Both the position numbers and the translations under genes were made by a program. Below the pieces are notes generated by a model. The model saw only the letters and a program-made list of their open reading frames with translations. It did not search any database and had not been told where the DNA came from. Shown in pieces: positions 9,951-21,764 of a stretch of 64,000 bases of DNA (its first letter is position 1; every line of letters starts with the position of its first letter). The DNA is taken from positions 32,001 through 96,000 of the forward strand of contig CAVULX010000004.1 of assembly GCA_963742415.1 (NCBI GenBank). The letters are read 5' to 3'. The stretch is from an uncultured Parachlamydiaceae bacterium (GTDB taxonomy: Bacteria > Chlamydiota > Chlamydiia > Chlamydiales > Parachlamydiaceae).

Positions 9951-12900
9951 CTATCCCTGATCTTTTTTAAGACGCAACATCAGAATATCCAAAAAATTAT
10001 CGACGGCCTGCAGAGTAGATGGAAGAGATCGGATGATTTTCCCTTCGATAAATTCTTCTATAGTTGCGTCAAGGTTGGCTAAATCTATCGAAAACCCTTT
10101 TGTGATACTTTCCAGCTCCTCTTTTTGTTCTGGCCTCAGCATCCCTTTTGATAAAGAAAAGTTCAACTGGTCCAAGAACCGCAATTGGTTTAAGAGCTGT
10201 TGAGATTCAGATAGAGCATCTGAATTGTACCGATAAAGCTTTTTTAAAATCGGTTCCAAAATTTTTATACGATCTTCCAACTGGTCTATTATTGTTGCAG
10301 GTAGTTCTTTAGTGTATGGCTTGATTCTATCTAAAAATTTTTGAAGTTGATGGGAATGACAAAAAGGTTTACCTCGAAAATCAGTAAACAATAAATGAGA
10401 AGAGCCTTCCCCTTCATCAAACAGCGGGAGATATCCCATCAAGGCTTGCAAAATACTTTCTATGAGGACGGCTTCTTTTAATAAAGCGGACAACCCCCAA
10501 GAATAAGCGTTTGATCCTTTTATACCCAAACGACTTGAAAAATTGGCTAAGTCTAAATTCCGATTTTTCAAGTCATTTGGGTATAGATATAAAAAAAGAT
10601 TTTTGAGACCTTCTAAAGCCCCCCCACACTCCTTCAATACGCTGCTGATCTCGGTTTTTAATTTAAAATCCTTGTTTGAATTGAAATGAGATAAGTGAAG
10701 CCTGTGTAATTTTTGCCCTTCATACAATTTGCTTTCGGTTTTGTTTAATTGAGGGATGATTGAGTGGCTCATCGCTAATTGAGTAGATTTGGATTGAATT
10801 TGCAAATCCTTGCAGATTCCAGGCAAAAGGGAAAGTTCTATTTTAACAGTAAGTTCCTCTGGAGAAACAGAGCTCATCTGCTCTACATCGACAGAGAGCA
10901 AGAGATTTTTTAGGACTTCCATTCCGTTTTCAAAAAAGCGGCGGCGATTTTCTTGCACATATTTCCACCCCTTTTGAATTAGAGAGGGGAGCGATTCTTG
11001 CTCACTGAAGGAGATCTCTAATCCATGGCATAGCTCAAGTCGAGCTTGGTTTTGCTCTTTTTTAGAAAGGGAATTTGGTTCCAAGTTTGACAAATAAAGA
11101 ATTTGAGAAACTCCTTGCATCATAAAATCAAAAGATTTGCTGCTATATCGCCCAGAGATATCAATGATGGCATCTAAAGAATTTAGCCAGTTGATTTGAT
11201 CGGCGGATAAAGGGAGTGGAAACTGAATTTGCTCATGATTTTTCTCTAACTCTTGATAAAGCAAGCCGAGTTGATGTTTGTGAACATGATCTAAAGGGTT
11301 CGAACGAGTAAACAGAAGTTTTATAGCTTGTTCTATAGCTATACTCATTCTTAAGACGATAAAGGAAAACTGATGAGCTGTTATTTTTTCCGCGTTGATA
11401 TATTGTGCATGGGTTAATAGATCTTCAACCGATGATTGTAAGTTGGATTTCGCTTCATTTTTTATTGATTCAAATTGAATTTCGCCCTCATTAACAACGC
11501 CGTAATGGACCTTTTGAAATTCATAAATCGGCACCCTTTTGCATAAGCTACGGATCAAATTAAGTTTTTCGACGGAGTGGAGGTCTTTCCATTTTTGCTG
11601 AAATTCGAGATAAGATTTTTTTACTTCTCGTTCATGCGTTTCTTTTGAAATAGCCATTTCAGGAGAAGATGAGGCATTCAAATTCAAAAGTTTTGAAGGG
11701 ATAAAAACCTGTCGCAAAATAGGGTGAGGAGAGGGCGCCTTGGCTTGAGGCTTTTTGATATTAGAGCTTCGACCTTTTCTTTTTTTTCTTTTGCTCGAAG
11801 GGGCCTTTTTCTCTGTCTCAGAGAGAAGTTCTCGCTTTAACGCGAAACGGAGAAGGGGTTTAGCGCCTTTAACAAAAGTGGTTTTCAGAGAATCGGTGAT
11901 TATTTCTATTACCGGAGACAAACCGGGAATGCAGTTAGAGATATTTTCAAAGAATTCAATCACTTCTTCAACGCAGGAGATGTAAAGTTGAATTTTATGC
12001 TCTAAAAGCAGATCCTCTTGGGCAAGCAGCTTTAGGCTTCTTTCTCTCCAATCGGCCAAAGATTGGGATGAGAAGTTATAGGAAGTGGAAACGTGTTTCT
12101 CTAAAAGTAAAAAAAGTTGGACAAAATTATAATTTAATAACTCAGAAAGGATCTTCAACTGTTTCTCAAGCAAGTGCCATTCTGTCGGGGATGGCTCTGG
12201 ATTTGTCTCCTTAATAGGGGTATTTAAAAGATCCAAAAGGTCGATCGAGCGAAATTCATTAAAAATCGTGATGATTATATCTAAACTATTGATGAAAGGG
12301 GTGGCGACACGGTTAAAGTTTTTATGGATTTTTGCCATATTTTTTAAGCTTTCCCTATTAAGTCGTAGCTGGGAAATAAGACCTACCAAGCTTTCAAACA
12401 ATGTTAACTTTTGTTCAGGGCTTAGATGACTAAAGTTTTTATCAATAAATTCATTAAAATGAAAAATACGAGACAACGTTTGCTCAACAAGTTGTAATAT
12501 GTTTTTCTTTTCTGCTCCTTCATATTTATAAATTGGCGTTGCTTGCTCGTTCAACTTTATCAAAATAAAATCTATTATAGAAAAAGTTCCGGAATGAAAA
12601 TTTTTAATTTCAAAGCCTAGTTGCTCAACAAGTTTTTTTACTTGCAATACCACTGCTCTTGAATTATTGATATTCTCTGTGACAATTTTATATTGATCAT
12701 ATAAATAGATACGGTATTTGTGTACAATTACGTGCAATTCTTCTAACCCCTTTTTGTTAGAACGCTTTTCAAATTCATTTAGCCAAAAGAAGTGTCGAGC
12801 CGAGTTTTCAATTAATTCTTTTTCTAAAAACGTCTCCTGTTGATTGATCAAACAAAAAAAAGATTTTGTTTGGATAATCTGCCCCAATTTTTCGCGTTCT

Positions 12901-21000: not shown

Positions 21001-21764
21001 TCACTTAGGAATGAAGATTGAAAATCTGGAAAAATCTCTATTCGAGGCCGAGTCGTTAAAAGAAGCGGAAAAAGCTCCTTTGGATAAGTCAAACAATTTT
21101 TTATAATTTTTATAAGATTCACCATTTCATTGTGGGCTTCAGAAGTTAATGTAGTTTTGGTGAATTCCCAATAGGAATCGTTAATAAAAATATCGTTTTT
21201 TAATTGATTGGTAAGGATTTTTTCATCATTTAAATTTAAATATTCTTGAAAAGCGTTAAATAATAGATTTAAATCAGTAAGAATAATTTCAGCAAGATCA
21301 GCTTTTAGAACTTCCTTTTCTTTAAATTCTGTTGTGATTACTCTTACTTTTATGTTAACCGCTTTTTTATGTTTCAACAAGAGGTAGGGAAGACGTATTT
21401 CTAACCATCGCATGATGTTTATCATGTCGCCGCTAAGCTCGGGGATTAGTTCATTTATTCCTTTGTAAGTAGTCTCAATGTCCTCAATAGATTTTTTTGC
21501 TTCGATTTTTTCTCTAAAAGGTTTCCAACCTTTAATAGAAATAAATAGGGCATGGACTTCTAAAGTTGTAAGCCGTCCAAATAATTCTTTAGTGTTGATG
21601 ACTTCAACCTTACCAGGCTGAAATTTTAAAGCTTCTTCTGGAATACTCCCTACAGGTTTTAAACAAAGCTGCCTACAAAGGAAGTCTATGCCCCCTCTAT
21701 TTTTTTGTATGTCTTCAAAGAGTATTAATGGCAGGGAGGAGTAAAAAGAAGATGTTGGTTCCAC
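18030..21764 (-). CDS. Large hypothetical protein, paralog 3 of 3, putative tandem-HEPN effector
   Basis: 1244-aa ORF with GTG start. C-half is nearly identical to paralog 2. Confidence 0.85.
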   Translation of the reverse strand: MEPTSSFYSSLPLILFEDIQKNRGGIDFLCRQLCLKPVGSIPEEALKFQPGKVEVINTKELFGRLTTLEVHALFISIKGWKPFREKIEAKKSIEDIETTYKGINELIPELSGDMINIMRWLEIRLPYLLLKHKKAVNIKVRVITTEFKEKEVLKADLAEIILTDLNLLFNAFQEYLNLNDEKILTNQLKNDIFINDSYWEFTKTTLTSEAHNEMVNLIKIIKNCLTYPKELFPLLLTTRPRIEIFPDFQSSFLSELHYIDNYYGEKIPNNIPQKLRKSFLLTLHEIKEILIEINKDIENLNSIIKNRTFLKLTEVKSLNSLTKLSKNNDNYINWVHKYENCPHATGSETEEMCEIIKKYHLYLYNHYYMVASTILNSSETVCVVIKCAKDLGIELNNFHSGIFSLGDIILIKLHEQARKIFKCIGTDDRIIRHLIEGILSINIIDIDLSKLSYNEKSKSLSNYYRIVSDLEFKTKLLRQVLQKYPNLKTVTEDFVKYLDISIQIFKHFYVGIDLLGLLWSPIKESSPIPSSAELDFLQKKLKILSEELFEFFDEKSISFLGKRFAPFNIFIVNWKERFQAQLKKVGLPLENKIQNYISSVEEVIDFFTNLVNDKRALFINEHLGSIINILKNTYIETAKPLLTFAMRQELLSSTPKKGGANQRKKRGQKPNAQKPLVKTPPLPKPMRQLFIPWKMLNLNPSSSPEIAIQKEAHEQEVKKSYLEFQQNWKDLPFWERLQSLHSLCKRLQTYEFQMVHYGSLKEGENQFESIKNEAKSNLQSSVEDLLTLAEQIESEKITPHQFSFLVLRMSIAIEQAIKLLFNRKNSITHVHKHQPGLLYQELVKNQEQIQFPLPLSTDQTDWLNSLDSIIDISGRYTSKSFDFMVIGNSQILYLSTLELDSLSKEEQNQARFELCQGLGIPFSEQESLPSLIQKGWKYVQENRRQFFETGLEVLKNLLLSVDVENMSVVPSEKLSFKADLSLLSGIFKDLQIQTKSSQMSNLITQMDMIWNKLYNGQNLHRLHSPHFKSTEIKTGISSALKESEGALQSLKNLFPYLKGSSAYAWGMAALLKEAVLIESMMQALMGYLPLFDEGESSSHLLFTDFHGKPFCHSHQLQKFLDKIKPHIKELPATVIDHLEDRIKILEPILKKLYRYNSDALSESQQLLNQLRFLDQLNFSLSKGTLRPDQKEELESITKGFSIDLANLDVTIEEFIEGKIIRSLPSTLKAVDKLLDILLIKIKQN

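Follow-up and report, generated by a model that had tools for sequence, protein, structure and literature searches.

The window analysed here is a 64,000-nucleotide (nt) stretch from an uncultured Parachlamydiaceae bacterium (GenBank assembly GCA_963742415.1, contig CAVULX010000004.1, positions 32,001 to 96,000, forward strand). It contains three consecutive minus-strand genes for proteins of about 1250 amino acids (aa), which raise the question of what these large proteins are and on what they act. A first-pass annotation had proposed that each carries two HEPN-like domains and that the three may be nucleic acid-targeting effectors secreted into the host. Our analysis favors, with a probability of roughly 0.6, the reading that the trio is a lineage-specific tandem triplication within a double-HEPN-like family that is predicted from its conserved residues to be directed at RNA or nucleotides. 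The three genes, taken from the list of open reading frames (ORFs) and their translations, are as follows.

9951..13799, minus strand: paralog A (P0001), 1282 aa; ATG start, intact.
14084..17896, minus strand: paralog B (P0002), 1270 aa; ATG start, intact.
18030..21764, minus strand: paralog C (P0003), 1244 aa; GTG start, intact.

The three collinear paralogs lie on the minus strand exactly where the first-pass annotation had placed them, and none of the three translations contains an internal stop codon (0 in A, B, and C). The GTG start of paralog C gives it the same N terminus (xEPTSS) as paralog A. The N-terminal sequences quoted for the three proteins (MEPTSSPLPP, MDPIMQTTQPSATSSS, and (V/M)EPTSSFYSS), their basic patches (SSKRKKRKGR, KRLNSRKKGKRK, and QRKKRGQK), and the two C-half motifs were all recovered in the translations. 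Paralogs B and C are 57–59% identical to A overall and can be aligned with it along the entire length. The distinction drawn earlier between a divergent N-half and a conserved C-half is borne out by identities of 41–52% and 77–93%, respectively, among the trio.

The pattern that had been noticed twice in the C-half reflects a true internal duplication. Alignment of C-half residues 60–215 with residues 325–500 by hhalign gave a probability of 99.1% (E = 1.6e-18) and paired E833 with E1102, H852 with H1138, and R894-Y895 with R1178-Y1179 (the numbering of P0002, paralog B, is used for conserved residues). Among 36 pairs of 140-residue windows taken over the whole protein, relatedness was seen only between windows covering the repeats. 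The C-terminal ~490 aa consist of two homologous domains, positioned in the three proteins as listed below.

11028..11495, minus strand: A, HEPN-like repeat 1, aa 769–924, with E823, K827, H842, R884-Y885, and D891.
10092..10634, minus strand: A, HEPN-like repeat 2, aa 1056–1236, with E1114, H1135, H1150, and R1190-Y1191.
15095..15562, minus strand: B, HEPN-like repeat 1, aa 779–934, with E833, K837, H852, R894-Y895, and D901.
14225..14767, minus strand: B, HEPN-like repeat 2, aa 1044–1224, with E1102, H1123, H1138, and R1178-Y1179; the part of the model that overlays solved HEPN domains.
19020..19487, minus strand: C, HEPN-like repeat 1, aa 760–915, with E814, K818, H833, R875-Y876, and D882.
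18165..18707, minus strand: C, HEPN-like repeat 2, aa 1020–1200, with E1078, H1099, H1114, and R1154-Y1155.

Conservation was counted over 75 sequences with 13–37% identity to the query outside the trio. In repeat 1, E833, H852, and R894 are present in 70/70 sequences, Q834 in 66/70, K837 in 57/70, and Y895 in 53/70; in repeat 2 the corresponding counts are 73/75 for E1102, 72/74 for H1123, 74/74 for H1138, 71/74 for R1178, and 73/74 for Y1179. The His and RY residues singled out in the first-pass annotation (H852, R894, H1138, R1178, and Y1179) are thereby near-invariant in the homologs (71–74/74 or 70/70). Charged residues this constant on a background of <20% identity point to a ligand-binding or catalytic site. 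Repeat 1 contains the E-x3-[KR] motif (E833 and K837), and repeat 2 keeps E1102 with Leu or Gln at the +4 position. The R-x4-6-H motif expected where the final core helix begins is absent from the trio: the Arg is invariant, and at R894+7, where all three proteins have Asp, the family has D in 41/68 members and H in 12/68, with repeat 2 variable at the equivalent position. The R-x5-H strings RSNPLDH and RKNSITH, which had been described as lying off the canonical catalytic position, do occur; they sit in a loop that is unconserved even in the closest homolog, which rules them out as active sites.

To place the two repeats, eight genuine PF05168 ORFs (124–150 aa) from related chlamydial genomes served as the HEPN reference. 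These share invariant Q48, E51, K52, L54, K55, H69, L71, L74, R103, and Y104, and carry at R+7 an Asp (four), Ala (two), His (one), or gap (one). With hhalign, repeat 1 matched this set at 64% (E = 6.6e-5) with the Glu, His, and Arg-Tyr aligned, and repeat 2 at 82% (E = 1e-5) in a local alignment spanning the His and Arg-Tyr. A second comparison with the 75-sequence alignment gave 75.1% (E = 2.5e-5) and also aligned the Glu of repeat 2. H852 and H1138 each fall on H69, an invariant residue of the reference set. As controls, six reversed repeats and three segments from elsewhere in the C-half all scored <1%, and in a sliding scan of the family alignment the 3/14 windows that cover the repeats reached 46–89%, with 11/14 at <1%. 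Passages of Anantharaman et al. (2013, PMC3710099) ascribe to PF05168/AF0298-type HEPN domains an E-x3-[KR] motif and an Asp in place of the His of Rx4-6H; in the AF0298 (2hsb) type, an upstream His is conserved as well and may form an alternative active site together with the Arg. As Asp in place of His is described for PF05168, the residue found at R+7 lowers the case for a canonical catalytic HEPN domain, not that for the HEPN-T clade. The similarity to PF05168-type HEPN, as judged by profiles, is specific to both repeats and of moderate strength.

The structural evidence is less specific. A model of the C-half (551 aa) was obtained with high confidence (predicted local distance difference test score 93.2, predicted template modeling score 0.93) and is all-helical. 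In a structural comparison with 48,161 chains, HEPN structures appeared in the top 50, all on model residues 328–551, with Z scores of 7–9, a range common for helical proteins and the same as that of G protein-coupled receptors (GPCRs), lyases, and designed bundles. Solved HEPN domains were covered over 124/126, 135/139, 142/151, and 137/143 residues at root mean square deviations of 3.3–3.8 Å, with Z no better than that of generic bundles; GPCR-type entries in the same comparison had deviations of 4–6 Å.

Several of these results, including the Z scores just given, weigh against the HEPN assignment. The reference profile comprises only eight sequences, and when only a 6-sequence alignment of the family was used the comparison fell to 9.2% (E = 0.0036). 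The curated Pfam HEPN model PF05168 found no match in the three proteins (E<=1), in 39 relatives (E<=0.01), or in the six-frame translation of the own genome (0 matches). Sequence-profile searches of the PDB matched no solved HEPN structure and returned either nothing or coiled-coil noise, the best being keratin at E = 2e-4 on the N-half. Foldseek, queried with the complete C-half model, returned nothing at E<=1e-3, and its top 1000 chains, when re-examined, were generic GPCR, lyase, and rhodopsin bundles with no HEPN among them. An ESM Atlas search with the C-half yielded no usable match (best 0.83, aldehyde dehydrogenase fragments). The HEPN consensus match claimed in the first-pass annotation thus stands in part: both repeats resemble PF05168 by profile at 46–89% and the curated model is silent, and of the fold likeness expected there only overlays at generic-bundle Z were obtained, with Foldseek empty.

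The silence of the curated HEPN model and the empty Foldseek search would favor a family-specific helical bundle, with an E...H...RY likeness that arose by convergence or chance and a function unrelated to RNA. The moderate hhalign values, including the 9% obtained with the shallow alignment, would fit such a bundle as well. We nevertheless consider this explanation improbable. The signal is confined to the repeats, with the 11 other windows and the reversed controls below 1%; the four motif elements (E-x3-K, the His, R-Y, and D/H at R+7) occur in the right order and in the right helices; and the near-complete coverage of solved HEPN domains at 3.3–3.8 Å contrasts with the 4–6 Å of GPCR-type bundles. 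Taking the profile comparisons and the C-half model together, both repeats are likely to be diverged HEPN domains of the PF05168/AF0298 type.

The proteins that share this C-half form a family of their own. A profile built from six C-halves was searched over 1.84 billion cluster representatives and matched 78 of them at E<=1e-3, 63 at E<=1e-10, and 35 at E<=1e-30. The representatives are nearly all 1100–1400 aa long with the profile match at the C terminus, and a full-length family hidden Markov model gave end-to-end matches in other chlamydial families (E = 1e-70 and 2e-53), so that one architecture is kept end to end across the family. No family match was found for the three proteins in Pfam, NCBIfam, or PADLOC, and none of 39 members scanned matched any Pfam family; the lone PADLOC row was a sub-threshold Cas11e in one homolog (E = 0.0013). 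A word-indexed homolog search with the C-half returned the window's own paralogs only. In a cluster look-up 10/10 proteins were present, and the sole name carried, by one protein, was "hypothetical protein". Membrane-type hydrophobic segments are absent, as a Kyte-Doolittle 19-mer mean above 1.9 is reached in only 3/54 members, with a maximum of 1.99. The family is a previously unnamed one of soluble proteins of ~1250 aa, all-helical over the modeled C-terminal 551 aa. In titles and abstracts of the literature on HEPN with Parachlamydiaceae, chlamydiae, or type III effectors, no HEPN-bearing Chlamydiae-specific family is described.

Within the genome of origin (2.69 Mb, four contigs) no family copies were found beyond the trio. 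The protein family is carried by 10/73 genomes of the same bacterial family (Parachlamydiaceae), one of which has 15 matches across at least 10 contigs. In a sample of 300 genomes across the phylum, the 75-sequence profile matched nine at E<=1e-5, among them 2/32 additional Parachlamydiaceae and a single genome in each of six other families; there was no match in the 29 genomes of family f20 or in the 46 of f5. A tblastn search against plasmids and phages found no family copy. Among the genomes searched, the family occurs in environmental Chlamydiae, and its restriction to Chlamydiae holds for these genomes. Decaying copies occur outside the window genome. One genome (G004), which holds several copies, has a family gene split into ORFs of 464 and 774 aa (L009:3087-6774) and another copy with four stop codons (L022), and a second genome (G046, L084:8904-10908) has a truncated copy in which the first ~100 and last ~510 residues are left. 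Old and patchily distributed, the family is shaped by gene birth and death.

The N-half is more diverged than the C-half. Its positions and those of the basic linker are as follows.

15740..17896, minus strand: B, N-half, aa 1–719; divergent between the paralogs, with homology along its full length across the family.
11673–13799, minus strand: A, N-half equivalent.
19665–21764, minus strand: C, N-half equivalent.
11751..11810, minus strand: A, basic linker KKAPSSKRKKRKGRSSNIKK, aa 664–683.
15818..15877, minus strand: B, basic linker PKTKRLNSRKKGKRKPVAKK, aa 674–693.
19743..19802, minus strand: C, basic linker PKKGGANQRKKRGQKPNAQK, aa 655–674.

Sequence searches of Pfam, the ESM Atlas, and the PDB gave no relative of the N-half, and the 36 window pairs showed no internal repeat in it. 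Further HEPN-like units or repeats in the N-half were considered and rejected, with its windows at <1% and no internal similarity. The few conserved positions are chiefly Pro and Leu, together with Q42, D424, and E550. The first 25 residues are enriched in Ser, Thr, and Pro (0.249 versus 0.163 over 60 members), and in 13/60 members they fall in the protein's own top decile. The basic patch, described earlier as resembling a nuclear localization signal, is strong in the trio and present in all three proteins; at least eight Lys or Arg per 20 residues are found in 14/54 full-length members, so the patch is a subfamily trait and not a feature of the family. Nuclear targeting through it would be a subfamily feature at best, and we regard it as improbable.

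The history of the trio was reconstructed from a FastTree tree of 69 C-halves, from which 6/75 rows with <400 aligned residues had been left out. The trio is monophyletic (support 1.0), with B and C as sisters (0.96) on this C-half tree, and its closest relative is a single-copy Parachlamydiaceae homolog (0.995). The ratio of nonsynonymous to synonymous substitution rates (dN/dS) is 0.45–0.49 in the N-half and 0.27–0.35 in the C-half, indicating that all three genes are under purifying selection. Synonymous divergence (dS) is 0.77–1.02 in the N-half versus 0.09–0.45 in the C-half, a difference that fits gene conversion acting to homogenize the C-half against a diverging N-half. Immediately past the basic linker, B and C rise from ~50% to 92–100% identity, suggestive of a gene-conversion tract over the entire C-half. 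The GC content of the trio region is 0.29–0.38 versus 0.41–0.48 in the flanks, and in paralogs B and C (14084–21764) it is 0.31 in the N-half and 0.376 in the C-half.

How such a protein might work can be proposed from its conserved residues. The C-terminal double HEPN-T module would bind RNA or a nucleotide via the E/H/R sites, with repeat 1 (R-x6-D/H and E-x3-K) as the better-preserved half-site and repeat 2 as its degenerate partner, and the fast-diverging N-half of ~700 aa may give target or partner specificity. That the conserved E/H/R residues form an RNA- or nucleotide-binding site has, in our estimate, slightly the better of the odds. By analogy with HEPN ribonucleases (RNases), the same site could cut RNA without a metal, although we consider such cleavage less likely than not. 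We know of no PF05168-type HEPN domain with proven RNase activity. Cutting is also disfavored by the Asp, not His, at R+7 of repeat 1 in the trio proteins, by the lack of any conserved residue at R+7 of repeat 2, and by the sacsin HEPN domain, which is reported as RNA-binding (PMC13669270). The same two observations, the missing canonical Rx4-6H His and the RNA binding by sacsin, would fit a non-catalytic HEPN-like scaffold of the kind proposed for sacsin and seen in Roquin, which binds a nucleotide, RNA, or protein and whose E/H/R residues hold the ligand uncut; a non-nuclease would also be easier to tolerate without an immunity partner. Such a scaffold is nonetheless rather unlikely. The 12/68 members with His at R+7 have the canonical R-x6-H, three charged residues that stay near-invariant at <20% identity are a pattern expected of a catalytic site more than of one that only binds, and the invariant upstream His (70/70 and 74/74) corresponds to what a passage of Anantharaman et al. 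(2013, PMC3710099) proposes as the alternative catalytic His of AF0298-type HEPN.

Whether the double-HEPN-like proteins act in the bacterium or in its host is a separate matter. The absence of an immunity or antitoxin gene, in obligate intracellular genomes that have a type III system, leads us to lean to putative export to the host, in preference to a function confined to the bacterium, at somewhat short of even odds. The genome of origin has two genes for FHIPEP, a marker of the type III machinery, and four for TLC-type nucleotide transporters. The FHIPEP genes, the Ser/Thr/Pro-rich N termini, and the absence of membrane-type segments bear on secretion only circumstantially. The low share of genomes with the family (9/300), the basic patch in a minority of members, and the lack of any chaperone gene seen near the trio or its homologs speak against an effector role. 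The same tandem HEPN-like module could instead work inside the bacterium as a regulated RNase or RNA-binding factor, in stress, in RNA turnover of the developmental cycle, or in defense against mobile elements. According to a passage of Anantharaman et al. (2013, PMC3710099), characterized prokaryotic HEPN proteins mostly act in the producing cell, in toxin-antitoxin, abortive infection, and CRISPR systems; moreover, export is only putative, with no chaperone-like neighbor found, and mobile elements are present as possible targets of defense in the form of dispersed palindromic repeats and of a group II intron reverse transcriptase that adjoins one homolog. We still judge a role inside the bacterium to be on the unlikely side. 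The 10 homolog loci have no antitoxin, nucleotidyltransferase, or conserved partner, no PADLOC defense model matched, no CRISPR-like array lies within 32 kb, no copies were found on plasmids or phages, and the multi-copy expansions (15 matches in one genome) with diverging N-halves resemble host-interaction families of amoeba symbionts. The most far-reaching form of the double-HEPN-like reading is that the proteins are candidate Chlamydiae-specific, type III-delivered single-chain double-HEPN RNase effectors, with an intramolecular composite site as in Cas13, in which the N-half would direct the paralogs to different host RNA or ribonucleoprotein and a basic-patch subfamily would go to the host nucleus. 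This combination, by which amoeba symbionts would reprogram their host, we consider quite unlikely.

HEPN domains are the cutting or binding module of RNA-directed conflict systems such as Cas13, RNase L/Ire1, abortive infection, and toxin-antitoxin. If the target is indeed host RNA, the known effector repertoire of obligate intracellular bacteria would be extended by an RNA-targeting class, and the family would offer a naturally fused double-HEPN scaffold without guide RNA. Read conservatively, the analysis provides a domain assignment for ~78 clusters of "hypothetical" 1250-aa proteins and precise mutational targets in B, namely E833, H852, R894, E1102, H1138, and R1178. It also documents a tandem array whose C-half is homogenized while the N-half diverges.

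The genes around the trio are unrelated to it, as judged from a family search of the window proteins. The features of the flanks and intergenic regions are as follows.

1287–4442, minus strand: Ser/Thr protein kinase, 1051 aa, eukaryote-like or unusual.
5551–5596, minus strand: Acido-Lenti-1 RNA (Rfam; 47.1 bits versus a gathering threshold of 37, E = 8e-8), between the DUF192 and cytidylyltransferase genes.
5677–9398, plus strand: nonulosonic/sialic-acid-like cluster with a CMP-sugar cytidylyltransferase, a GNAT-NeuB-SAF fusion, and a HAD phosphatase.
9384–9443 and 9850–9941: palindromic element of the same type as that at 13911–14086, downstream of paralog A; a 59-aa ORF lies between the arms, which are ~440 nt apart.
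13911–13970 and 13995–14086: palindromic element with inverted, ATCCTGC-rich arms of ~45–50 nt and a loop of ~57 nt, downstream of paralog B.
22092–22820, minus strand: PEP-CTERM protein, 242 aa; carries a signal peptide and, at the C terminus, a PEP-CTERM sorting signal.
24222–26978, plus strand: Hsp70-like protein with DUF3731, 918 aa, eukaryote-like or unusual.
27091–29886, plus strand: SNF2-domain protein, 931 aa, eukaryote-like or unusual.

The nonulosonic cluster is followed by a 248-aa ORF that appears Nudix-like by eye and has no family match. On the other side of the trio, the protein at 22092–22820 matches the NCBIfam THxN family PEP-CTERM protein (E = 9.4e-43) and a choice-of-anchor K domain, and an alanine dehydrogenase gene lies on the same side; a PEP-CTERM protein in a chlamydial genome seems unexpected. 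The palindromic element is dispersed, with 125 matches in the genome of origin, and looks like a repetitive extragenic palindromic (REP)-like repeat or one resembling a miniature inverted-repeat transposable element (MITE). PF01909 nucleotidyltransferases occur at three places in the genome, none of them in the window, in agreement with the earlier remark that none adjoins the trio, and none is found among the 35 ORFs flanking the 10 homolog loci. A recurring neighbor, chaperone, or antitoxin was likewise rejected, since none is shared by these loci (blastp at 1e-5 and a Pfam scan of the 35 flanking ORFs). The closest homolog adjoins a gene with a Chlam_OMP6 domain, which, with the FHIPEP and TLC genes, places the window in an environmental chlamydia. 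In the genome with the largest family expansion (G063, L090:10174-12483), a protein with BTB and leucine-rich repeats adjoins a family member.

Among known systems, the repeats come closest to PF05168 HEPN domains of the HEPN-T clade (AF0298, 2hsb; sacsin HEPN, 3o10; TM0613, 1o3u). Common to both are a helical domain of ~130–150 residues, E-x3-K on the second helix, a His before the third, R-Y(-P) after the fourth, and D/H at R+7; the modeled repeat 2 overlays 2hsb and 3o10 over nearly their full length, at the Z score of generic bundles. In contrast to PF05168 domains, the trio repeats score below the Pfam threshold, are fused as two copies at the end of a ~1250-aa chain, and lack a nucleotidyltransferase partner or fusion; repeat 2 also contains an insert with an additional invariant His (H1123) and is without the E+4 Lys and the R+7 D/H. 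A HEPN-type domain with a conserved Arg-centered site is shared with HEPN-MNT toxin-antitoxin systems as well. Unlike these, the family is not accompanied by an MNT (PF01909), either in the window or next to its homologs, its proteins are ten times longer, and its genes are scattered or in paralog arrays instead of two-gene operons. The DUF582/PF04518 type III effectors (CT619–CT621, CT711, and CT712) resemble the family in being large helical proteins, Chlamydia-restricted and present in several copies, whose C-terminal domain is conserved. The two distributions, however, are disjoint: PF04518 is universal in f20, where the trio family is found in 0/29 genomes, and is seen in 0/32 genomes of the trio's bacterial family, with 0 matches in the genome of origin. 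A relation to DUF582 effectors was therefore rejected, also given the absence of a Pfam match and hhalign values of <1% in 7/7 windows.

Cas13 effectors are single-chain proteins with two HEPN domains, which are spread through the protein. In the family the repeats are instead adjacent in the C-terminal 490 aa, the window proteins have no R-x4-H, and there is no CRISPR array or cas gene nearby. A Cas13-like locus was accordingly rejected, as positions 1–32000 of the window contain no CRISPR-like array or CRISPR RNA family and no R-x4-H is conserved. The eukaryotic protein Swt1 is entered in Table 1 of Anantharaman et al. (2013, PMC3710099) as a "dyad of HEPN domains" in one chain; the trio differs from it in having no PIN domain. 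What the family shares with Cas13 and Swt1 is a large, mostly helical protein (~1000–1300 aa) with two HEPN-type domains, so that an intramolecular composite site would be possible. The HEPN domain type and single-chain double-HEPN proteins were already known, and what is new is the family itself with its constant ~1250-aa layout, the way it is distributed in Chlamydiae, and a tandem array whose C-half has been homogenized.

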